Assembly (NCBI GenBank): GCA_964510585.1
Contig: CAZECW010000076.1
Span: forward strand, 1 to 32,000
Direction of reading: 5' to 3'
Length of the DNA: 32,000 nt
Source of the DNA: an uncultured archaeon
Lineage (GTDB): Archaea > Asgardarchaeota > Jordiarchaeia > Jordiarchaeales > Jordiarchaeaceae
Part shown: positions 5,128 to 17,332 of the stretch, in pieces
How positions within the stretch are numbered: the stretch's first letter is position 1
Layout: every line of letters starts with the position of its first letter
Position numbers and translations under genes: made by a program
Notes under the pieces: model-generated
What the model was told of the DNA's origin: nothing
Databases searched by the model: none
Seen by the model: the letters and a program-made list of their open reading frames with translations, nothing else

Positions 5128-5279
5128 TTTAAGTCCTCCATAATAGCCTGTATACAATAAGTTTTAGGTTTAAAGATAAAGTTAACAAAAAGTTCTCCTT
5201 TTTGTATACAAGTCTTAAAAAATTAAGTTTTTGGTTGTGTCTGCTAATCGGTTACTTTTTTTGTGATAATTGGGCCCAT

Positions 5280-6200
5280 CCTATGTTATGGTTTATCTGA
5301 AAAACAAACTAGTAGGTGAAGCCCAATGATATCCATATAATAACCAAATATACATTCCATGGGATCTAAAAATCTTATTGCCCTATCCAAGAGGCCTTGG
5401 ACGAAGCCAACCTGAACAAAGAAATCCCCAAGAACAGCACTAGAAAAGACGCAAAAAACCAGCCAATAGACAAGCTGCAGGAAATACGCCAGAAACCAGG
5501 ACAAGAAGTTCCCAAGAGCCCGAAACATTCAAGAAAACACTGGCGACCAGACAAGGCACATTAAGGTTCAAGCTCGTCAAGGCAAAGTCCCTGAAGAAAA
5601 GAACCATACTGAAGACCGCTCCTCTCCACAATAGGGCTAGAGCCGAGGAAGAGAATTGCCCACAACCTAGTCTTCAAAAACGCTGGAGACGACAACCCCC
5701 ACCCACCTACGGATACTCCAACGCCGTAAATACAGAACCTCCAAAAAAAGCCAAGACCCCGCAAGCACAGAATACACCCCTACATCCAAGAGGTAGGAGT
5801 CCTCTTTAGGTTGGGGACGCAGAAAAATTAGAAGCCGAGACCTGACCTGCTCTTAAACAGAAGACAAAAAGGCCCACGGCCTAAAAAGAAAAAAGTCAAC
5901 ATTGTATCCTTGAAGGGACGCGAAAATAGGCGAGAAAAGGTCTTATGGAACTCGGTGAAAAGGAATTGGAGAGAAAACGTAGAAATAGACCAAACCCGAG
6001 CATAGATCCTAAGTAGAGGATGCGGACAAACCTCTTGAGAGGCGTCCTCCCAGACGGAGCACTAAAACCATCAGCTCTGAGCAAAACCACTTGGTGAGAG
6101 ATGAGCCTTCGCCTGTGGAAGGCCGGCCCACCTCAAAAAATGAGCGAAGTTAAATTCTAAGAAGCTGAGGAGGATACTGTACACCTGCAGAAAATCTGGT
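5280..6200. pseudogene. Probably decayed coding or mobile-element remnant, not identified
   Basis: Only short overlapping ORFs in shifting frames; strongly A/C-rich and T-poor on the + strand; no recognisable motif. Confidence 0.2.
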
Positions 6201-6705
6201 GAGGTTGTTTATAAAAACCCTAACTATTTTGTTGACAATTTTTTCGGCACCTTCAGAAAGGGTGGTGTCCCCCACAATTATCTTCCTTTAATTTTATCAT
6301 AGTATAAATAAAAATAAATTAAAATAAAGATAAAATTAACAATTCGTAGGCACTATCAAGAAGGAAGGTTGGTAGGAAGAAGCTAATGCCATGCTAGAAA
6401 CTGATGTACTACAAGTACAAGAAAAGAGTTTGAGCTTAATGACATTGCTCCATAGGAGCGCCGGGGCAGCAGTGACTTCGTCTGGCCGCTTGGCTCATGT
6501 GTTGCCAAGGCAGCACAACATCTGAATGAGAAGGTAATGAGGGGAAAACATAAACACTGTACAACTCAAACAAAATTAATAGCAATACAAATACATCAAT
6601 TTTTTCGGCGTATTCCTCATAGTAAATTTTATTAAAGGAATAGTTTGATAGTGTTCTGGATTAGAAACTATCTGCTCCCGCTGTTTAAGGATTATTAAAA
6701 AAGTC

Positions 6706-6740
6706 TATAAATAAGGAAAAATTCTCTGATAAAAAGGAGG
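6706..6740 (+). promoter_or_regulatory. Candidate TATA box and SD of the hdr cluster
   Basis: TATAAATA at 6706-6713 preceded by an A-rich BRE-like tract; GGAGG at 6736-6740, 10 nt before the hdrC ATG. Confidence 0.45.
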
Positions 6741-6750
6741 ATGACTGGCA

Positions 6751-7332
6751 ATGACAAGCGCTAGCCCAGAAAACGAGGTGAATGCTAGTGAAGGTGAAAC
6801 AATTAGTTTAAGCGAGATTGATCAGACTTTTCTAAAAGATTTGGAGAATTTGCCTGGTGGAGAAGCTTTGAAGCTTTGCTATCAGTGTGGTGTTTGCATA
6901 TCGAGCTGCCCGGTGGCAAGGTATTTAAGTGAGTATAAACCGGCTCAGATTGTTAGAATGGCTGTTTACGGTCTTAAAGAGAAATTATTCGCCAGTAGAA
7001 ACATATGGCTATGTTCTACGTGTTATGCCTGCCTAGAACGCTGCCCGGAAGGAGTGAGACCAGCAGATATCATTAGATCCATCGCCAATCTTGCTTTTCG
7101 AGAGGGCATAGTACATGTTGCATTTAAGGAAGCCGCTACTAATATTTTAAACACGGGTAGAATGTTTGAGGTGCCAGAAATTAGGAAAAAGAAAAGAGAG
7201 AAAGTGGGGTTACCAAAGCTCCCAGAAGTAAATATTGACGAAGTTAAAAAGCTTCTAAGAAGCACTGGGTTAGAGGAACGTCTGTCCAACACGAAGAAGG
7301 TTATTGGAACCTCCGAAGAGAAATCAGAGTAG
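6751..7332 (+). CDS. hdrC: Heterodisulfide reductase subunit C
   Basis: CYQCGVCISSCP and WLCSTCYACLERCP ferredoxin motifs; 193 aa; directly upstream of hdrB. Confidence 0.9.
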   Translation: MTSASPENEVNASEGETISLSEIDQTFLKDLENLPGGEALKLCYQCGVCISSCPVARYLSEYKPAQIVRMAVYGLKEKLFASRNIWLCSTCYACLERCPEGVRPADIIRSIANLAFREGIVHVAFKEAATNILNTGRMFEVPEIRKKKREKVGLPKLPEVNIDEVKKLLRSTGLEERLSNTKKVIGTSEEKSE

Positions 7333-7345
7333 AAACTAATAAGAT

Positions 7346-8239
7346 ATGGGGGTTGTGGAAGTGAAGTATGCGTTTTTTCCGGGATGCTTATCCCCTTCAC
7401 GTATACCAAGTTATGAACTTGCAACTAGAAGGATCGCGGAAAAGTTAGGTATAGATCTTGTTGATTTAGAGGGAGCTAACTGTTGCGGTTACTACCTCAT
7501 GTCTCTGGATCACCTTTCCGCTTTGGCGTTGGGTGTGAGGAATCTCTCTTTAGCTGAGAACTTAGGATTAGATATTTTAACCATATGTACGGGTTGTTTT
7601 AGCACACTAAAAGAAACAAATGATATCTTTAAGGAGAACAAAGAGAAACAAGCTGAATTGAATAAGCTAATGAAAAGCATTGGGAGAGAATACAAGGGAA
7701 GCGTGGAGATAAAACACTTGGCCAAAGTACTACTTGATGATGTCGGACTAGAAAAAATTAGGGGAAGCATCGTACATCCACTTAAGGGATTAAAGCTGGC
7801 TATTCACCCAGGCTGCCACCTTGTTAGACCATCGGATCATCTTCATTTCGGCGATCCAGAGGATTTAAACGTGTTAAGAGAGCTAGTAAAGGTTACCGGG
7901 GCCGAGGTAATTGAGTATCCTGATGAAATGGCTTGTTGTGGATTTGTCATCTTTGGTGTTGATAAAGACGCCTCGCTAAAAATAGCTGGAGACAAGCTAA
8001 GGGCAATAAAATCATCGGGCGCAGATGCAATAATTACCTTCTGCGGTTTTTGCACACTTATGTTTGATAGAAATCAGCCAATAATTGAAAAATTCCTCAG
8101 CGAGAAATATGATATTCCGGTTTTACTGTACCCGCAGCTACTCGGCTTAGCTCTGGGCATCAAACCAGAAGACCTCGGGATCGATGAGAATAGGGTGAAA
8201 CCAAAAACTGTATTCGAAGTGCTAATGGAGGAAGAGTAA
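7346..8239 (+). CDS. hdrB: Heterodisulfide reductase subunit B
   Basis: YAFFPGC, NCCG, C.GC, HPGCH, CCG and C.FC: two CCG domains; 297 aa. Confidence 0.92.
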   Translation: MGVVEVKYAFFPGCLSPSRIPSYELATRRIAEKLGIDLVDLEGANCCGYYLMSLDHLSALALGVRNLSLAENLGLDILTICTGCFSTLKETNDIFKENKEKQAELNKLMKSIGREYKGSVEIKHLAKVLLDDVGLEKIRGSIVHPLKGLKLAIHPGCHLVRPSDHLHFGDPEDLNVLRELVKVTGAEVIEYPDEMACCGFVIFGVDKDASLKIAGDKLRAIKSSGADAIITFCGFCTLMFDRNQPIIEKFLSEKYDIPVLLYPQLLGLALGIKPEDLGIDENRVKPKTVFEVLMEEE

Positions 8240-9402
8240 TGGTTTCAGCTTCGGAATTTGCTGTATCAGAAATTGTAAAATATTGTTATCAGTGTGGAAA
8301 ATGTGTTGGTATTTGTCCAGTATCCGGATTGAAAAATTTTAATCCACGACTCATGATTCACAAGATTCTTCTTGACGGCCCCGAGTGCTTACTTAGAGGC
8401 AATGACATTTGGAATTGCCTTACATGTGACCAATGCTCTAGTCTCTGCCCAATGGGAATAGAGTTTTCAAAGTTCGTTAGAAGTGCAAGGGTAGAGAGTT
8501 TCAAGAGGGGAATATACGGCGAGGAGGCTCATACGGGAATTCTTTCAACTATTACCAAAATCATGGCTAATTCCAATTTGACTCCAAATATGCTTGGTGA
8601 ATGGTTCCCTTCAAGACTTAAAATACAAAATAAGAGCGAGTACGCTTACTTTGTAGGATGTCTACCTATTTTTGATCGGGTTTTCGCAAACATAGGAGGT
8701 AAGTATTCGGACATAGCTGTGGCAGCGGTAGCTATTCTCAATGAGCTGGGTATAACTCCTGCAGTGGTCAGTGATGGAAAATGTTGTGGGCATGATAGGC
8801 TGTGGTCGGGAGATGTTGAAACATTTAGGGCGCTGGCAGAACATAATCTCCAAGCCATTGATAGGACAGAAGCATCAACACTTATCACAACATGTGCCGA
8901 GTGTTATAGGACACTTAAACTAGACTATCCTGAACAATTCGGTGAGCTTCCTTTCAAAGTAGTCCATATGTCTGAGTTTTTGGCAGATCAGATAGATAAG
9001 AGGGGATTAGATTATCCTGTAACAGATAAAAAAAAGGTTACATACCATGATCCCTGCCGTCTTGGAAGGCAGGCAAAAGTGTTTGATGCTCCTAGGAAGG
9101 TCATTAAAAGCGTTCCGGAACTTAGTTTTGTTGAGATGGAAAGAATAAGAGAAGATTCATTATGCTGTGGTACAAGCAGTTTTCTATCTTGCAATGATTA
9201 TGCGAAGGCGATAAGAGTTGATAGGATGAATGAAGCAGAAAGAACTGGGGCCAATGTTCTTGTTACAACATGTCCTAAGTGTCAGATACATTTCAACTGT
9301 TTAAAAACTGAGGTACAGTTTGCTGATTGTAAGACAAAGAAGTACGACTTTGAAATTACTGATTTGACTGTACTGGTAGCCCGATCTCTTAAACTGATTT
9401 AG
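8239..9402 (+). CDS. HdrD/GlpC-like Fe-S oxidoreductase (2x[4Fe-4S] plus 2 CCG domains)
   Basis: CYQCGKCVGICP, WNCLTCDQCSSLCP, YFVGC, CCGH, CAEC, YHDPC, CCG, CPKC; TAATG stop/start overlap with hdrB. Confidence 0.85.
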   Translation: MVSASEFAVSEIVKYCYQCGKCVGICPVSGLKNFNPRLMIHKILLDGPECLLRGNDIWNCLTCDQCSSLCPMGIEFSKFVRSARVESFKRGIYGEEAHTGILSTITKIMANSNLTPNMLGEWFPSRLKIQNKSEYAYFVGCLPIFDRVFANIGGKYSDIAVAAVAILNELGITPAVVSDGKCCGHDRLWSGDVETFRALAEHNLQAIDRTEASTLITTCAECYRTLKLDYPEQFGELPFKVVHMSEFLADQIDKRGLDYPVTDKKKVTYHDPCRLGRQAKVFDAPRKVIKSVPELSFVEMERIREDSLCCGTSSFLSCNDYAKAIRVDRMNEAERTGANVLVTTCPKCQIHFNCLKTEVQFADCKTKKYDFEITDLTVLVARSLKLI

Positions 9403-9412
9403 AGGTTTGAAT

Positions 9413-12400
9413 ATGAAGAAAAATGATGAGGAAATTGTTGGTTCTGTTTTGGTTATTGGTGGAGGAATAGCAGGAATCCAAGCCTCCCTAGATTTAACAG
9501 ATCTGGGATATAAGGTCTATCTCGTAGAAAGAGCTCCCAGTATTGGGGGAAGAATGGCTCAATTAGATAAAACATTCCCAACTAATGATTGTTCACTCTG
9601 TATTCTGGCTCCCAAAATGGTGGAAGTGGGGCGAAACCCAAACATTGAACTGCTCACATATTCCGAGGTAAAGAGTGTATCTGGAAAAGCTGGAAATTTC
9701 AAAGTAGAGGTTCTGAGAAAACCCCGATACGTAGATGAAACTAAGTGCAAAGCATGTGGAACCTGCAGTGAAAAATGTCCCAAAAAAATAGTGGATGAAT
9801 ATAACATGGGATTGGGACAAACGAAAGCCATATACAGTCCATTCGCCCAAGCTGTGCCAAACACCTATCTAATTAATCCCTCAGAGTGCATCTATTTTCA
9901 GCGGGGAAAGTGCCGTAGCTGCGAGAAACTTTGTCCAGCGGGAGCAATAAACTTTGAACAGAAAGAAAAAATAGAGGAATTAAAGGTAGGAGCAATTATT
10001 GTTGCAACAGGGTTTGAACAGTTTGACCTGACCCAAAAGAAAGAATATGGGTATGGACGTTTTCCTAATGTTATTTCTGCTCTTGAGTTTGAGAGGTTAA
10101 TGTGCGCATCAGGCCCTACGGGAGGACATATAGTTAGACCTTCGGATCATGAAGAACCAAAAAGAATTGCGTGGATCCAGTGTGTGGGTTCCAGAGACAC
10201 TAAAATGAAGAGTTACTGTAGTAGCGTATGTTGTATGTATGCAACAAAAGAGGCCATCATAACTAAGGAACATGATCCTAACATAGATTGTTACATATTC
10301 TATATTGATATGAGAGCTTTTGGAAAAGGTTTTCAGGATTTTGTAAACCGAGCAAAAGAAGAATACAATGTTAAGTACATCCGTGGCAAAGTCTCCCAGA
10401 TTATCGAAGATCCAAAAACCAAGAATCTAAAGCTTCGCTTCGAAGACATGGAAAGAATGGAGTTCGGAGAGATGGAAGTGGGGCTGGCTGTCCTGTCGCC
10501 TGCCCTAGTTCCCTCAAAAGGAACTAAGGAGTTAGCAGAAATATTAGGACTGGATTTGGATGAAAACTGCTTCTTGAAAGAGAGAGATGAGTTCTCACCT
10601 GTAGAAACTAACATTCCAGGTGTGTATATCTGCGGATACGTTCAAGGACCAAAGGATATACCGGAATCGGTGGCTCAAGCCAGCGCAGCGGCAGCTAAGG
10701 CTTCGGAACTCCTTGCACCAGCTAGAGGAACATTGCTAAAAGCGAAAAAAAAGGTGCCTGAAAAGAAAATCAGCGAAGAACCCAGAATTGGAGTAATGAT
10801 TTGTCACTGTGGAACCAATATAGGAGGCTTCTTGGATTGCAAGAGTGTTGCGGAATATGCAAAAACGCTTCCTGGAGTCGTCTATGCTGAAGACAATATG
10901 TATTCTTGCTCAAGCGATTCCCAAGAGAAAATAAAAAAACTCATTGCAGACTATGATCTAAACAGATTTGTTGTAGCTTCATGCACCCCTAGAACCCATG
11001 AGCCTCTATTTATGAAAACTTGTGAAGAGGCGGGACTAAATCCCTTCTTATTTGAGATGGCAAACATCCGAGACCAATGCAGTTGGGTTCATATGAGGGA
11101 ATATGAGAAAGCAACCGAAAAGGCTAAGGACTTAGTCAGAATGGCGGTGGAAAAAGCAAGAATGCTTAAACCACTATACTGTGATACCGTGGAAGTCGAA
11201 GGATCGGCGCTTGTGATAGGCGGTGGCATCGCAGGTATGACCGCTGCTCTTAGCATTGCTAGACAGGGGTTCAAGGTTTATCTTATTGAGAAGGAGAAAC
11301 AACTTGGGGGCAAGCTCAGAAGTCTAGATACTCTTTTCATATCAGGAAGAAAGGCTGAGGAGTTACTTCAAGAAAAAATTGATGAAATAAGTTTACAAAA
11401 GAACATAACGGTATATACACAGGCAAAAGTGAAAAGCATAGAGGGGTATATTGGAAACTTCGGAGTCACAATAGAAAACGAGGAAGGAGAGAAAAAAATC
11501 AAAGTGGGGGTTATAGTAGTAGCTGTTGGTGCGGAATCCTTCAAGCCTATTGGGATGTATAACTACGGAAATAGTGATAAGATAATGACCCTTCTTGAAC
11601 TGGAGGAAGCGATGAAAAGGGGTACAGTAAACTTTGGGAAGAATATAGTTTTCATTCAGTGCGTTGGTTCCCGAGAGCCTGAAGGAAGAACATATTGTTC
11701 AAGGGTTTGCTGTACGACCTCTATTAAACAAGCACTCAAACTTAAGGAATCTGATCCCGAAAGGAGAATATTCATTCTATATAGGGACATTGTAACACCC
11801 GGGAAGGGATACGAAGACTATTACCGCAGGGCCTTAAGAGAGGGTATAATGTTCATCCGTTATCAAGAAAACCAGAAACCGAAAGTTAAACTATCAAATG
11901 GAGGGAGGCCAGTAGTTGAAGTTTATGACACGCTTCTCCAAAGAAATGTGGAAATAGAGGCGGATAATGTTGCTCTAGCGACACCGTTGGTGCCCATAGA
12001 AAACAGCGAAGAATTATCCTCAATGTTAAAGGTACCACTAAGTCAGCATGGCTTCTTCTTGGAAGCTCACTTAAAGCTTAGACCTTTAGACTTCGCAACA
12101 GATGGAATATTCCTATGTGGAACAGCAAGTTCCCCATGCACAATACCGGAAGCTATAGATCAAGCAGAAGGAGCCGCATCTAGGGCATCAACAATACTAG
12201 CAAAGGGTCAAGTCGAAACAGTAGGCATAACCTCCGTGGTAGATGAAAAACTCTGTATAGGCTGCGGCCGCTGCGCCGCTGTCTGCCCATATAATGCAAT
12301 ACAGATGATAACATGTGAAGAAGAACTGGGAGAAATAAAAATACAAACCCGGAAAGCAAGAGTTATAGAAGCAGTGTGTAAAGGCTGCGGAACATGTGTG

Positions 12401-12484
12401 AGTGAGTGTGGCACAAACGCAATTAATCAGAAACGCTTCGAGAGACAACAGATAATGAAAATGATTGAGAGCGCGATACATTAA
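9413..12484 (+). CDS. hdrA: Large two-FAD-module HdrA-family flavoprotein (Cys form, about 1023 aa)
   Basis: Two GGGIAG motifs, DKTFPTNDCSLC, ferredoxin insert, two QCVGSR/YCS..CC motifs, internal ICHCGTNIGG domain, C-terminal ferredoxins. ATG 9413 (GAGG SD) preferred over TTG 9407. Confidence 0.92.
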   Translation: MKKNDEEIVGSVLVIGGGIAGIQASLDLTDLGYKVYLVERAPSIGGRMAQLDKTFPTNDCSLCILAPKMVEVGRNPNIELLTYSEVKSVSGKAGNFKVEVLRKPRYVDETKCKACGTCSEKCPKKIVDEYNMGLGQTKAIYSPFAQAVPNTYLINPSECIYFQRGKCRSCEKLCPAGAINFEQKEKIEELKVGAIIVATGFEQFDLTQKKEYGYGRFPNVISALEFERLMCASGPTGGHIVRPSDHEEPKRIAWIQCVGSRDTKMKSYCSSVCCMYATKEAIITKEHDPNIDCYIFYIDMRAFGKGFQDFVNRAKEEYNVKYIRGKVSQIIEDPKTKNLKLRFEDMERMEFGEMEVGLAVLSPALVPSKGTKELAEILGLDLDENCFLKERDEFSPVETNIPGVYICGYVQGPKDIPESVAQASAAAAKASELLAPARGTLLKAKKKVPEKKISEEPRIGVMICHCGTNIGGFLDCKSVAEYAKTLPGVVYAEDNMYSCSSDSQEKIKKLIADYDLNRFVVASCTPRTHEPLFMKTCEEAGLNPFLFEMANIRDQCSWVHMREYEKATEKAKDLVRMAVEKARMLKPLYCDTVEVEGSALVIGGGIAGMTAALSIARQGFKVYLIEKEKQLGGKLRSLDTLFISGRKAEELLQEKIDEISLQKNITVYTQAKVKSIEGYIGNFGVTIENEEGEKKIKVGVIVVAVGAESFKPIGMYNYGNSDKIMTLLELEEAMKRGTVNFGKNIVFIQCVGSREPEGRTYCSRVCCTTSIKQALKLKESDPERRIFILYRDIVTPGKGYEDYYRRALREGIMFIRYQENQKPKVKLSNGGRPVVEVYDTLLQRNVEIEADNVALATPLVPIENSEELSSMLKVPLSQHGFFLEAHLKLRPLDFATDGIFLCGTASSPCTIPEAIDQAEGAASRASTILAKGQVETVGITSVVDEKLCIGCGRCAAVCPYNAIQMITCEEELGEIKIQTRKARVIEAVCKGCGTCVSECGTNAINQKRFERQQIMKMIESAIH

Positions 12485-12494
12485 AAAATGAAGG

Positions 12495-12932
12495 GTGATG
12501 TTTTTGTCAGAAAAAGGGAAAGGAGAGTTTGAACCTAAAATAGTTGCGTTCTGTTGTAATTGGTGCTCTTATGCAGGTGCAGATTTAGCTGGTGTCAGCC
12601 GGTTCCAGTATCCACCCACAATAAGAATAATTAGAGTTATGTGTTCAGGCAGAATCGAACCGATTTTCATACTTAAAGCCTTTGAAGCAGGCGCAGATGG
12701 GGTACTAGTTTCAGGTTGCCACATTGGTGATTGTCACTACATTCACGGAAATAAGATTGCAGAGAACAGGATTAAGGCAACATCGGAGATATTAGACCTT
12801 ATTGGTCTAGGTTCAAATAGACTCAGATTAGAGTGGATTTCAGCTTCCGAAGGCATGAAATTTAGTGAAGTTATCAAGAGTTTTACAGAACAAATCAGGG
12901 AAATTGGTCCCAGTCCCCTTCGCAAGAGCTAG
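12495..12932 (+). CDS. mvhD: MvhD-type [2Fe-2S] protein (Cys form)
   Basis: FCCNWCSYAGADLAG, RVMCSGR, GADGVLVSGCHIGDCHY, WISASEG; the real start may be 12498 or 12504. Confidence 0.93.
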   Translation: MMFLSEKGKGEFEPKIVAFCCNWCSYAGADLAGVSRFQYPPTIRIIRVMCSGRIEPIFILKAFEAGADGVLVSGCHIGDCHYIHGNKIAENRIKATSEILDLIGLGSNRLRLEWISASEGMKFSEVIKSFTEQIREIGPSPLRKS

Positions 12933-13073
12933 GAAATAACAGTTTATCTAAATACAAGGGCCTGTTGTAATAAAATATATTAAACAAACAGTTTGACGGG
13001 CATCATAAAAAGTACTACATCCGCCCAATAAAATGAGAAATATATGTTCACTAGAAGAATGGGTTGACAAAAG

Positions 13074-13271
13074 ATGAGCAAAAAAATAGATTTGAGTGAA
13101 GAGGAACAAGTACTTGTAAAGGAAATTATGGAAGAATTGGGCTTGAAAGGTGGTAAAGACAAGCGACTCGTATCAACTATTGGCAAAAAACATAATTTTG
13201 ATAAGCAAAGAATGATTGTTGCAATTAAACGTGCAATCATCGGGAGAACCGACGAAACACCTAATTCTTAA
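13074..13271 (+). CDS. Small hypothetical protein (65 aa, probably helical)
   Basis: ATG start, natural-looking charged sequence, ends about 20 nt before the Sec-hdrA start with that gene's SD in the gap. Confidence 0.65.
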   Translation: MSKKIDLSEEEQVLVKEIMEELGLKGGKDKRLVSTIGKKHNFDKQRMIVAIKRAIIGRTDETPNS

Positions 13272-13291
13272 ATTGGAGGTGATTAATGCGA

Positions 13292-15253
13292 ATGAGTAAT
13301 AATGAGAAAACTGCATCGGAACCAGCCATCGGCGTCTACGTTTGCGAGTGAGGCGTTAACATAGGTGGCGTCGTTAACTGCAAAGAAGTAGCAGAATTCG
13401 CGAGTAAACTTCCTAACGTAAAAACATCAAAAACTTATTCGTTCTTCTGCTCAGACCCAGGACAAAAAATAATAAAAGAGGACATAGAAAAACTTGGAAT
13501 AAACAGGGTGGTCGTAGCTTCCTGTACTCCTAAAACACATGAACCCACCTACAGAACATTGTTGCAAAGCGCAGGAATAAGTCCCTACTACTTCCAAATG
13601 GTTAATCTGCGAGAACATTGCTCTTGGGTACATTATAAGAATCCTAAAGAAGCCACAGAAAAAGCAAAACATTTAGTGGCGGCGGGAGTAGCTAGAGCTC
13701 GACTCTTAGAGGATGTACCTCAGAGAACCGTAAAAGTGGAACCCGCGGTTATGGTAGTCGGAGCAGGAATCGCGGGAATAAGCGCAGCAATCACGGTCGC
13801 TAATCATGGACTTAAGGTCTACCTTGTAGAGAAAAAGCCCACCATTGGTGGATTGATGGCCCAGCTTGATAGGACATTTGCTACTGACGATTGTGCAATC
13901 TGAATATTGGCTCCAAAAATGGTTGAAGCTGCTAAACACCCAAACATTAAATTGCTGACCTACACAGAAGTAAAGGAGTTGAAGGGGAGCCCTGGCGAAT
14001 TCATAGTGACTCTACTAAAAAAACCAAGATATGTGAATGAAAGCAAGTGTACGGGATGTGGTGCATGTTCCGAAAAGTGTCCCGTAGAGGTTCCCGACGA
14101 GTTCAACAATGGACTTGGAACAAGGAAAGCCATATACATACCGTTCTCTCAAGCGGTGCCTAAGATTGCTTTAATATCTATGGAGGATTGTATTCAATGC
14201 AAGTCTTGTGAACGCCAATGCTTAGCTGGAGCGATTGACTATGATCAGAAACCAGAAGAATTCGAGGTTAAAGTCGGCGCGATTATAGTAGCAACAGGTG
14301 CGGATATCTATGATGCGGCTGAACGGAAAGATTATGGTTATGGAATATACGAAAATGTTATCACACAAATGGAACTGGAGCGAATGTTAAGTCCTACTGG
14401 CCCCACATTTGGGCATATTTACAGGATTTCAGACAGAAAGGTACCAAAGCGAATCGCAATGATCCAGTGTGTTGGCTCGAGAGACATAAAAACTAATCCT
14501 TACTGCTCCGAGGTCTGTTGCATGGTAGCAATGAAGAATGCAAAACTAATAAAACAGCACGATCCGAACACCGAAGTAACCATATACTATATGGATATGA
14601 GAACTGTAGATGAAGGACACGAAGAGTACTATATGGGAGCCAGAGGACACGGAGTGAAATTCGTAAGAGGCAATGTGGCCAGAGTCAAAGAAGACCCCAA
14701 AACCAAAAATCTACTGCTCAGGGTTGAGGACACATTAACAGGAGAAATAAAAAGAGAAGAAGTTGATTTGCTGGTTCTTTCAACTGCAGTAATACCATCA
14801 AAATCGGGAACAGAACTCGGTGCGATTCTGGGCATTGATATGTCAGCAAGTGGCTTCCTCAGACCAGTGCACTCAGGACTTAGCCCACAAGAAACAAAAA
14901 CACGTGGAATTTATATTTGTGGCATAGCACAGGGACCAAAGGATATATCCTACGCAGTTTCTTCAGCTAAGGCTGCGGCGTCAGCTGCTACAGCTTGGTG
15001 TCTTGCGGGAGAAGCGACGCTAGAGTTAATAACTCCAATTGTTGAAGAGAAACTTTGCATTGGCTGCAGGAGATGCGAAAGAAACTGTCCATTCGGAGCC
15101 ATTAAAGTGATTGAGGGTGTAGCGAAAGTAGACGAAGCAAGTTGCAAAGGTTGCGGAATCTGTGTCGCTTCATGTCCAGCACATGCTCTGGATCTCAGAT
15201 ATTACCGCGACAAACAGATAAGGGAAGAGACGGCAGCGCTAGTTGAAACTTAA
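13292..15253 (+). CDS. hdrA: Selenocysteine-containing HdrA (653 aa; Sec20 and Sec204)
   Basis: One continuous frame from ATG 13292 (GGAGGTGA SD at 13275-13282) to TAA 15253, with in-frame TGA at 13349-13351 (GVYVCE-U-GVNIGG) and 13901-13903 (TDDCAI-U-ILAPKM). Both align with TGT-encoded Cys in the neighbouring hdrA (10808, 9599). A SECIS-like hairpin follows the stop. Confidence 0.92.
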
Positions 15254-15259
15254 TCCATA

Positions 15260-15316
15260 TGCTTAATGATTCCATCAGCGAAAGCCTTGACTGGTGGATG
15301 AAGGCTCTGGTAAGCA
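15260..15316 (+). promoter_or_regulatory. SECIS element (eukaryote/Asgard type) for Sec-hdrA
   Basis: ATGA(15266-69)-T-TCCATCAG / loop CGAAAGCCTTGA / CTGGTGGA-T-GA(15300-01); lower stem TGCTTA/TAAGCA; begins 12 nt after the stop. Confidence 0.8.
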
Positions 15317-15369
15317 ACCAGTAGGATTAAAAAATATAATTAAAAAAGGTGTGTGTTGGAGGAAATAGG

Positions 15370-15777
15370 TTGACATATCAAGTTGTTGTATATGCGTGTT
15401 GGAAATGAGGTTATGGAGTAGCCGACCTCACAGGTGTTTCCAGGGTGGCTTATGACCCAGCCCTTAGAATCGTGCGTTTAAGGTGTACGGGACGCCTGGA
15501 TAGTTCGTTATTGCTGGAGCCGATTTGTAATGGTGCAGATGGCGTTATGGTGGTGGGATGACATATAGGTGAGTGCGACTTTGAAAAGGGAAACATTATG
15601 GCAGAGAAACATGTGAACTTTGTTAAAAGAATTCTTGAAAGACGTGGAATCGGAGGCGATCGGGTTAATATGTATCATTGTTCAGCGGCTGAGGTTGGTC
15701 GATTCAAGGAATCCGTTGAGGATATGATGGGCAAAATCAGAAAACTGGGACCTAATCCCTTAAGACAAGAAAAATAG
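15370..15777 (+). CDS. mvhD: Selenocysteine-containing MvhD/VhuD (135 aa; Sec13 and Sec64), absent from the ORF track
   Basis: TTG start 7 nt after GGAGG. Translation MTYQVVVYACWK-U-GYGVADLTGVSR...RLRCTGR...GADGVMVVG-U-HIGECDF...YHCSAAE...LGPNPLRQEK. TGA at 15406-08 and 15559-61 align with TGC Cys codons of the Cys paralogue (12564, 12717). Confidence 0.93.
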
Positions 15778-15781
15778 TTAC

Positions 15782-15862
15782 GGTTACTCCTCGGATGATC
15801 CTGAATCAATAAATCTCTGAAGATTCAGGAGACAATCCTCGTAAGCGGAGGGTTAAGTAACC
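15782..15862 (+). promoter_or_regulatory. SECIS element (eukaryote/Asgard type) for Sec-mvhD
   Basis: ATGA(15795-98)-TCCTGAATC / loop AATAAATCTCTGAA / GATTCAGGA-GA(15831-32); outer stems CTCC/GGAG and GGTTACT/AGTAACC. Confidence 0.82.
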
Positions 15863-15895
15863 TCTTGGCGGATATCCTGAATGGAGGTCACATAG

Positions 15896-17332
15896 TTGGC
15901 AAATAAACTAGATTTAGATGCTACGTTGGAAGCATTGAAGAGTTTTAGGGTTCGTGCCTTGTTCGGAGGAGAAAAAGAGATTGTCGAGTGTGGAAAAATA
16001 ACCCGTGAAGAATGGGAGAAACTCTTAGATTTCGTCGTGGACGATGAAACTGAGCGTAGAAAAGTTTTGTTAACTGTTAAGAGATTAGGCAGCGCATCCT
16101 TGTCTCGACTGGAACAAGAGTTAGAAATGTCTAATTTCAGTATTCAAAAACATCTTCGACTCCTGGAGTACGAAGGCTTAGTTGAGAGAAGCTCTGACAA
16201 TTTTTCAGAAGAAATTTATAAGCCTGTTTTAAAATCAGGGCCTTCGAGGCCTCCTTTTGAAAAAATCAAATTTATTGTAGATGAGAAGCTCTGCGTGGAC
16301 TGCGGAGCATGTGTAAGTTATTGCCCAACTAACGCAATAACTATTATTGATGAAGCCCCAGTAATTGATGAGGATAAGTGCATTGGGTGTGGCATCTGTA
16401 ATAGTGTAGCTTGCCCTAGAACCTTTCTCTATCTAGATCTTTTGAGATATTATGTAAAGGGTGAAACATGTAAACTTGATCAGGAACCAATAGCAGCATA
16501 TAAGAGCGCCTTTGCGGCGCAAACCATGAAGGAGGAAATAAGAAAAGTTTGCCAGGATGGAGGCATAGTAACATCAATATTGGCTTATCTTTTTGATCAC
16601 AACTTGATAGATGGAGCATTAGTGGTTAAAAAAAGAGGGGAAAACTGGGTCTCCGAACCGGTGGTGGTAACTAACAAGGAGGAACTACTTGAGACAGCAG
16701 GTACCAAGTATGTTGTTACTCCCACACTAGTAGGATTAGAAAAAGCCAAAAAGATGGGGCTTAAAAAAATTGCTGTGGTTGGAACTCCCTGCCAGATTCA
16801 GGCAGTCAGGAAGACGCAGGTCTTTTCAAGCGCCTTCCAAGAAATTATGGGGAGAATAGTTCTTGTAATAGGAATATTCTGCATGGAGAATTTTTCTTAC
16901 CAGAATATGAAGAAAATTGTTGAAGAATATTGCAAGGTGAATCTAGAAAACGCACGCAAAATGGATATTAGCAAGGGCCAATTCTCAGTACACTCCAAAA
17001 CCGGCGAAAAATCTTCAGTACCAGTTAAAGATATAACGGGTTTGGCGAGGCCAGCTTGCCATGTGTGTCCAGATCTCACCAATGAGCTTGCAGACATCTC
17101 AGTAGGCTCCATAGGATCACCGCCAGATTGGTCAACTGTACTTATTAGAACAGAGAAAGGTGGGGAAATTTTCCGAAAAGCCCAGGAGGAGGGGTACTTG
17201 ACTTCGAAACCGTTGGAAGAAAGTGAAACAGGACTCCCCCTACTTATAAAATTAGCGAGAGGGAAAAGAAAGAGAAACCTTGAAAAACTAGAATCCAAAA
17301 GAGCAGAAGGGAAATATGCTACCCATTTCTAG
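15896..17332 (+). CDS. FrhB/FdhB-family F420-binding flavoprotein with an N-terminal winged-helix-like domain and a 2x[4Fe-4S] ferredoxin
   Basis: SLSRLEQELEMSNFSIQKHLRLLEYEGLV (wHTH-like); CVDCGACVSYCP and CIGCGICNSVACP; QDGG, GTKY, VGTPCQ, GIFCMENF, CHVC.D...ELADISVGS.GSP; TTG start with GGAGGT SD. Confidence 0.85.
   Translation: MANKLDLDATLEALKSFRVRALFGGEKEIVECGKITREEWEKLLDFVVDDETERRKVLLTVKRLGSASLSRLEQELEMSNFSIQKHLRLLEYEGLVERSSDNFSEEIYKPVLKSGPSRPPFEKIKFIVDEKLCVDCGACVSYCPTNAITIIDEAPVIDEDKCIGCGICNSVACPRTFLYLDLLRYYVKGETCKLDQEPIAAYKSAFAAQTMKEEIRKVCQDGGIVTSILAYLFDHNLIDGALVVKKRGENWVSEPVVVTNKEELLETAGTKYVVTPTLVGLEKAKKMGLKKIAVVGTPCQIQAVRKTQVFSSAFQEIMGRIVLVIGIFCMENFSYQNMKKIVEEYCKVNLENARKMDISKGQFSVHSKTGEKSSVPVKDITGLARPACHVCPDLTNELADISVGSIGSPPDWSTVLIRTEKGGEIFRKAQEEGYLTSKPLEESETGLPLLIKLARGKRKRNLEKLESKRAEGKYATHF

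Follow-up and report, generated by a model that had tools for sequence, protein, structure and literature searches.

A full-length Asgard HdrA gene with two putative selenocysteine codons and a candidate SECIS element of its own

Does a gene that standard annotation breaks into pieces encode one HdrA protein with two selenocysteines (Sec) and, if so, which RNA element would direct their insertion? We address this question for positions 13292-15253 (+) of a stretch of 32,000 nucleotides (nt), hereafter the window, of contig CAZECW010000076.1 from the Asgard archaeal assembly GCA_964510585.1. Ordinary open reading frame (ORF) calling splits the hdrA gene located there into the fragments 13508-13903 and 13907-15253. 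With TGA read through, the same stretch is a single frame of 653 codons that ends in TAA and contains no other stop and no frameshift. We assign a probability of about 0.9 to the reading that this gene encodes a full-length Asgard HdrA whose UGA codons 20 and 204 are read as Sec through the archaeal/eukaryal pathway, directed by a Sec insertion sequence (SECIS) element immediately behind it (SECIS-1), the downstream gene vhuD having a SECIS of its own.

The first TGA (codon 20, 13349-13351, +) lies in an N-terminal C-x-U motif, VYVCE-U-GVNIGG, and the second (codon 204, 13901-13903, +) in a D-C-A-I-U motif, TDDCAI-U-ILAPK. A Shine-Dalgarno sequence, GGAGGTG (13275-13281, +), precedes the ATG start, and an in-frame alternative ATG is found two codons further 5' (13286, +). 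Pfam places Pyr_redox_2/FAD_oxidored at residues 152-337, with the Rossmann motif for flavin adenine dinucleotide (FAD) at 152-190, and Fer4 at residues 246-312 and 582-640; there are three ferredoxin-type cluster regions in all. The translated protein aligns collinearly with the solved HdrA 9sfi_A over residues 9-643 (E 5.3e-236) without large gaps, and 8rvu, 5odc and 7bkb give similar results. Taken together, 13292-15253 is a real, intact, full-length gene for HdrA, the flavin/iron-sulfur subunit, in an Asgard archaeon of the Jordarchaeia/Freyarchaeia.

To evaluate the two TGAs, the window protein was aligned with 80 Asgard orthologues read from DNA (n=81). Codon 20 is TGA in 80/81 sequences and codon 204 in 81/81, and the few remaining TGA/U columns of the alignment are all opposite Cys. 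Because TGA occupies the same two columns in these counts, chance is excluded, even though these relatives are not independent samples. By this comparison, both TGAs are the norm in Asgard HdrA. In the solved structure 9sfi_A, U204 aligns with the non-standard residue X197 of DCAMX, and U20 with the second Cys of VCYCG; the codon 204 site corresponds to Sec197 in M. maripaludis and to Cys205 in M. marburgensis. We infer from these alignments that Sec is truly inserted at UGA 20 and 204. An earlier note on this DNA had proposed a single HdrA with intact FAD and iron-sulfur motifs and two Sec codons at Cys-equivalent sites without a frameshift, and had suggested aligning homologues at both sites; the frame, the domain motifs and the two alignments bear it out. 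Its statement that Sec occurs in the DCxxU motif of archaeal HdrA agrees with X197, this being the canonical archaeal Sec site. It had been unsure how frequent the N-terminal C-x-U is in archaea, a doubt now settled for Asgard orthologues by the near-invariant TGA, while the methanococcal structure has Cys there.

Decoding of these codons would require the corresponding machinery, whose absence the earlier note had regarded as a possible refutation. The machinery was found. On contig C146 of the same genome, a PSTK-like gene, EFSec (302 bits) and SepSecS (512 bits) lie close together, and SelD (228 bits) is encoded on contig C193 and carries its own Sec (LYG-U-SCK); SepSecS, EFSec and SelD all score over their curated cut-offs. 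A tRNA-Sec gene lies just beyond SepSecS (C146:17103-17256, -). It has the anticodon UCA in the anticodon loop CUUCAAA, a 9-bp acceptor stem (GGCGGACUG/CAGUCCGCC), a long variable arm, an encoded CCA and two inserts, one of ~28 nt within the D arm and one of ~33 nt within the T loop. ARAGORN and Rfam RF01852 reported no tRNA-Sec on the raw genome, a false negative because the gene is interrupted by introns; it was located through a weak match in a complete genome of the same genus, followed by BLAST to C146. Once the inserts were removed in silico, ARAGORN called tRNA-SeC(tca) in 1052/1055 accepted variants. A heavy intron load has been reported in Asgard tRNA genes (bioRxiv 10.64898/2026.10.13.758758), and the low number of tRNAs detected genome-wide here, 7, agrees with it.

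The selD gene presents a peculiarity of its own: its conserved DVY-AIGG motif is interrupted after DVY by a 30-nt insert that carries an in-frame TAA (C193:53626-53655; L005:1759-1788). The insert is kept in all five same-genus genomes, and the sister family has it too, with 30 nt in one genome and 34 nt, breaking the frame, in another. The stem of the insert covaries, and its fold consists of a helix, a 3-nt bulge, a second helix and a 3-nt bulge on the opposite strand. This is a bulge-helix-bulge motif, and cutting at the predicted sites would restore the frame. Judged by this fold and its covariation, the insert is probably an intron of the endonuclease type, here within a protein-coding gene of an Asgard archaeon.

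Which element, then, would direct the recoding? Behind hdrA lies vhuD, a vhuD/mvhD-like gene of 135 codons (15370-15777, +; TTG start, TAG stop) with two in-frame TGAs of its own, at 15406-15408 (U13) and 15559-15561 (U64), both on the same strand. The 116-nt spacer between the two genes holds SECIS-1 (15254-15326, +), whose AUGA (15266-15269) starts 13 nt past the hdrA stop. The AUGA is followed by a U.U pair, an 8-bp stem and a 12-nt loop, CGAAAGCCUUGA, and the core is closed by GA at 15300-15301. The flanks comprise an outer helix (UCC/GGA), a 4-bp C-helix (GCUU/AGGC) and a 3-nt bulge (AAU), and an extra hairpin, CUGGU-AAGCA-ACCAG, follows at 15307-15321. The layout is that of a kink-turn, like the core of eukaryotic SECIS elements. 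SECIS-2 (15782-15862, +) comes after the vhuD stop, with an outer helix (GGUUAC/GUAACC), AUGA at 15795, a 9-bp stem, a 14-nt loop (AAUAAAUCUCUGAA), GA at 15831-15832 and an extra hairpin, CCUC-GUAAGCG-GAGG, at 15837-15851. One operon thus has two SECIS-like elements, each 13-18 nt behind the stop of a selenoprotein gene.

Mechanistically, UGA 20 and 204 would be decoded as Sec by tRNA-Sec, PSTK, SepSecS, SelD and EFSec, with the eukaryote-like kink-turn of SECIS-1 directing the recoding from 1.92 kb (codon 20) and 1.37 kb (codon 204) 3' of the UGAs, and with the two-Sec vhuD served by SECIS-2. The earlier note had expected one 3' SECIS about 1.9 and 1.35 kb from the two codons, and the element right past the stop fits that expectation, although the vhuD SECIS could contribute. 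A bacterial-type SECIS directly after the UGAs was also considered and rejected: the hairpins there are no more stable than those of shuffled sequences (z 0.07 and 1.08).

Several searches support the spacer element. A generic SECIS pattern asked for [AG]UGA, then one free pair, 8 paired positions, a loop of 10-16 nt that has AAA close to its beginning, and lastly GA or AA. It gave 7 matches in 7.56 Mb (the genome, both strands) and 0 after shuffling; of these 7, four sit 6-18 nt past the stops of hdrA, vhuD, selD and the vhuD of a second Sec pair on contig C150. This pattern was written after the elements had been seen, and its rarity counts more than the overlap. SECIS-1 is kept in five genomes of the same genus and in four of the sister family, where the stem differs completely in sequence (CACGCUGG/CCAGCGUG versus UCCAUCAG/CUGGUGGA) while AUGA, the GAAAGC start of the loop and GA/AA are unchanged. 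Across the two families, two-sided compensatory changes occur at 7/8 pairs of the upper stem. A covariance model (R2) was built from nothing but the six spacer elements of the same genus. It detects those of the sister family at 34-46 bits and likewise retrieves accepted SECIS behind vhuD in the sister family and in Helarchaeota, together with spacer elements in loci L017, L027 and L028. In the alignment derived from it (A7), 97% of cells pair and 21/21 pairs change on both sides, compared with 27-47% pairing when the partners are slid, figures that lean towards the model's structure because the alignment was fitted to it.

The alternative that survives best is that SECIS-2, acting on a polycistronic mRNA, recodes the hdrA UGAs, while the spacer element is otherwise employed, in mRNA processing, stability or translational coupling. 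This shared arrangement has a precedent in Lokiarchaeota, where a single lokiSECIS after VhuD has been put forward as acting on as many as six UGAs across ~2 kb (PMC4989117). The C150 hdrA-vhuD pair, in the very same genome, likewise has a short gap and a sole SECIS after vhuD, and SECIS-2 itself is present and conserved. The spacer element nevertheless has every SECIS hallmark at a position, 13 nt past the stop, like that of the selD and vhuD SECIS, and a model trained on such spacer elements retrieves bona fide SECIS elsewhere. Moreover, in the loci examined every long spacer has a SECIS within it: one was found in 8/8 loci with an hdrA-vhuD spacer of at least 116 nt, and no convincing one in ~40 loci with a spacer of at most 60 nt, where a single weak match appeared (L032; 7 bp, 1 mismatch). 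Finally, about 30 stand-alone Asgard hdrA genes have their own SECIS 12-21 nt past the stop. We therefore consider sole reliance on SECIS-2 unlikely and infer that SECIS-1 rather than SECIS-2 serves hdrA; SECIS-2 could also contribute, as proposed for Lokiarchaeota.

Two further explanations concern the TGAs themselves. They could be nonsense mutations or sequencing errors, the locus being a pseudogene or three small genes, as the fragments from standard ORF calling would suggest. Against this, TGA stands at the same two columns in independent assemblies, both sites align to functional Cys/Sec residues of a solved HdrA, and protein identity to the close relatives (79-88%) continues across both TGAs with the frame kept. 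The earlier note had also raised the error possibility, which was checked with assembled contigs of four metagenome runs from hot springs (two may be the source of the window): among the differences listed, none falls at either TGA, whereas neighbouring positions vary and one strain is ~3.5% diverged. This comparison shows that the TGAs are present in the contigs, which rare variants could escape. The pseudogene or error explanation is in practice already refuted. Equally negligible is a genome-wide reassignment of TGA (e.g. to Trp or Gly), for which nothing at this locus speaks: TGA terminates ~20% of long ORFs (298/1457), its occurrence inside hdrA is limited to Cys-equivalent columns, and the genome has the Sec pathway complete with tRNA-Sec(UCA). 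Given the conservation, the structure, the assemblies and the Sec machinery, pseudogene, sequencing error and reassignment are excluded for practical purposes.

A number of observations, besides the after-the-fact pattern and the fitted alignment described above, weigh against the proposed decoding. All structural support for it is comparative, and the runs listed as containing the stretch include no RNA data set. Rfam has no SECIS match, either over the whole window at the gathering cut-off or over 13200-15960 at E <= 10. A second covariance model (R1), trained on 44 Lokiarchaeia SECIS, scores SECIS-2 at 9.2 bits, gives nothing for SECIS-1 and has no genome match, although R1 is too lineage-specific to decide anything. 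The exact lokiSECIS geometry (9-bp stem, 11-nt loop) is not reproduced either, with loops of 12-14 nt and a first pair that is non-Watson-Crick. Within the machinery, the PSTK-like gene scores 206.7 bits against a cut-off of 290.5, although its match spans the full profile length and it clusters with EFSec, SepSecS and tRNA-Sec; selD, in turn, is functional only if its TAA-bearing 30-nt insert is spliced out. As for the protein, the top NCBIfam models are three HdrA families, whose scores of 851 (HdrA2), 631 and 607 bits stay under the equivalog cut-offs of 1100, 1400 and 1300, respectively. Because these cut-offs are unmet and Jordarchaeia are not methanogens, the assignment of a disulfide substrate is not secure. 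On profile and structure matches the HdrA fold family is secure; the name coenzyme B-coenzyme M (CoB-CoM) heterodisulfide reductase is not.

The extra hairpin is a recurrent companion of these elements. A second small hairpin lies within a few nt 3' of the SECIS in 56/61 Asgard SECIS examined, compared with 12% at random positions, and its loop carries NGC in 52/56 (loci L015-L090 and the window). The two arms are joined in Lokiarchaeia into a three-way junction by an outer helix around them (CCGAAA/UUUCGG), for which 14 sequences show CG to UA covariation; all helices of the junction covary. Neither of the two main SECIS papers mentions this hairpin in its searchable text, and a literature search returned nothing combining SECIS, Asgard and three-way junction. 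We tentatively suggest, at somewhat less than even odds, that the Asgard SECIS is a three-way junction whose outer helix encloses the kink-turn arm and an NGC-loop hairpin, a candidate docking site for an archaeal SECIS-binding factor, and that the long-spacer lineages (Jordarchaeia/Freyarchaeia, the sister family, Helarchaeales) have a separate copy for every selenoprotein gene rather than a shared one.

What would the two Sec residues do? According to the alignments, the C-x-x-C/U pair that flanks the bifurcating FAD has U204 as its canonical Sec/Cys. A review of the crystal structure describes the equivalent residue as the ligand contributed by one HdrA to the N-terminal [4Fe-4S] cluster in the partner HdrA (PMC9012536). 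In the cryo-electron microscopy (cryo-EM) map of the M. maripaludis enzyme, Sec197 is bonded to a Cys (PMC13518236), while in M. marburgensis Cys205 and Cys202 hold an unidentified ligand, and MvhD Cys16, His68 and Asp71 are singled out at the same interface (PMC13580544). U20, by the same alignments, belongs to the C-x-C motif within the N-terminal [4Fe-4S] domain, the mobile 'shuttle', where it may have a redox role. In VhuD, U13 aligns with M. marburgensis MvhD Cys16 and U64 directly precedes H65 and E68, the His/Asp equivalents; U13 and U64 also fall opposite the two X positions in M. maripaludis VhuD (9sfi_K). From the positions of U204, U20, U13 and U64, all four Sec of the HdrA-VhuD pair would map at or beside the contact between the mobile arm and the FAD. 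Recent cryo-EM work describes this interface as an unresolved step of flavin-based bifurcation. A homology between U20 and VhuD U13 was considered separately and found unsupported by sequence (BLASTP E 0.16, hhalign probability 0.4%).

The surroundings of the gene are those of an Hdr unit. The partner genes nearby are CCG-domain/Fer4 genes at 6751-9402 and MvhD genes at 12495-12932 and 15370-15777. The upstream Cys-type hdr genes (6751-12932, +) are separated by gaps of 0-13 nt and comprise an hdrC-like, an hdrB-like, a fused hdrC/B-like, a 1025-aa hdrA-like and a Cys-type mvhD gene; a 65-codon ORF lies between the latter and the Sec hdrA. The 1025-aa HdrA-like protein (9407-12484, +) contains no Sec, is directly followed by the Cys-type MvhD and has a rearranged/duplicated order, matching HdrA residues 152-556, then 8-241, then 348-643. 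Ahead of the hdr cluster, ~1.6 kb (5158-6750) have no ORF of at least 100 aa on either strand and no Rfam match. On the other side, 118 nt after vhuD, the next gene in the unit encodes an iron-sulfur flavoprotein of the FrhB/FdhB family (15896-17332, +). It is a likely electron-input partner, and an FrhB-type neighbour suggests cofactor-linked electron input instead of a hydrogenase. All nine hdr-unit genes (6751-17332) end in TAA or TAG; this hints at an avoidance of UGA stops near a SECIS, but at the genome-wide TGA frequency of 20% it is not significant (p ~0.13).

The genome as a whole is a 3.78-Mb metagenome-assembled genome (MAG) of the Jordarchaeia/Freyarchaeia (Asgard) from hot springs, in 217 contigs and 96% complete, and the window DNA is present in hot-spring metagenomes of several studies. 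The closest public loci, at 79-88% protein identity, belong to Ca. Jordarchaeum madagascariense and to Jordarchaeia and Freyarchaeota MAGs; behind them come some 240 more relatives, and among the best 80 of these nearly all are Asgard. When 13292-15777 is compared with loci L102-L106, identity is mosaic: hdrA is nearest to genomes G002/G004 (86-88% aa), whereas for vhuD the nearest are G001/G003 (94-97% aa), a pattern suggestive of recombination or exchange near the hdrA-vhuD spacer. There are about ten hdrA paralogues in the genome, and only two of them have TGAs, the window hdrA and C150:27282-29210. The latter belongs to the second pair (C150:27282-29653, +), a two-Sec hdrA and a two-Sec vhuD with a gap of ~25-38 nt and one SECIS only, of GUGA type, after vhuD; a Loki-like arrangement therefore exists within the same genome.

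Two consequences follow for other work. Gene callers fragment hdrA, vhuD and the C150 pair, so that Hdr-based electron bifurcation is under-counted in Asgard genomes. In addition, two SECIS in one operon offer a natural test case of whether an archaeal kink-turn SECIS acts on the preceding cistron only or on the whole mRNA. The new biology is little, since multi-Sec HdrA and eukaryote-like SECIS are established in Asgard.

The closest known system is that of Lokiarchaeota. Mariotti et al. 2016 (PMC4989117) described a multi-Sec HdrA with five possible positions, one of which may be the codon 20 site, a two-Sec VhuD directly downstream, an AUGA/A-rich/GA lokiSECIS and hdrA stops of TAA/TAG. The window locus shares with it a canonical Sec, near residue 200, together with one additional Sec site, the same-strand two-Sec VhuD downstream, a SECIS with AUGA, an A-rich loop and GA close to the stop, and an hdrA stop that is TAA/TAG and never TGA. 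It differs in its 116-nt spacer with a SECIS of its own, whereas the Loki spacer is very short and the SECIS after VhuD is shared, and in its loops of 12-14 nt rather than 11; the Loki-trained covariance model scores at most 9.2 bits here. In a survey of more than 400 Asgard genomes, Huang et al. 2024 also found very short spacers between hdrA and frhD and one SECIS almost always shared.

Within the lineage itself, Sun et al. 2021 (PMC9723677) reported Sec-HdrA, Sec-MvhD and Prx in Jordarchaeia, and Valentin-Alvarado et al. 2024 (PMC11291895) the same selenoprotein families in Freyarchaeia/Atabeyarchaeia. Lineage, selenoprotein families and eukaryote-like SECIS 30-500 nt downstream agree with ours; the passages searched in these two reports give neither the number of Sec per HdrA nor an assignment of SECIS to single genes.

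Two more distant systems offer further comparison. M. maripaludis HdrA/VhuD (PDB 9sfi, PMC13518236) has the equivalent of U204 at X197 and the same domain order over 635 residues, but Cys at the N-terminal C-x-C site of HdrA and a SECIS of the GAA_A type. With eukaryotic SECIS, which have a kink-turn AUGA/GA quartet and AA in the apical loop, the window elements share the core motifs, ~11 nt from AUGA to the AAA run, a location in the 3' untranslated region and a kilobase range of action; here, in contrast, the upper stem is shorter, an extra 3' hairpin lies inside the outer helix and the Rfam SECIS models have no match. The papers cited here know of no SBP2 in archaea. Since multi-Sec HdrA, the HdrA-VhuD pair and a eukaryote-like SECIS have already been published for Asgard, the finding is a correct rediscovery, and its modest novelty is the long spacer with a private hdrA SECIS, the 12-14-nt loops and the extra conserved hairpin.

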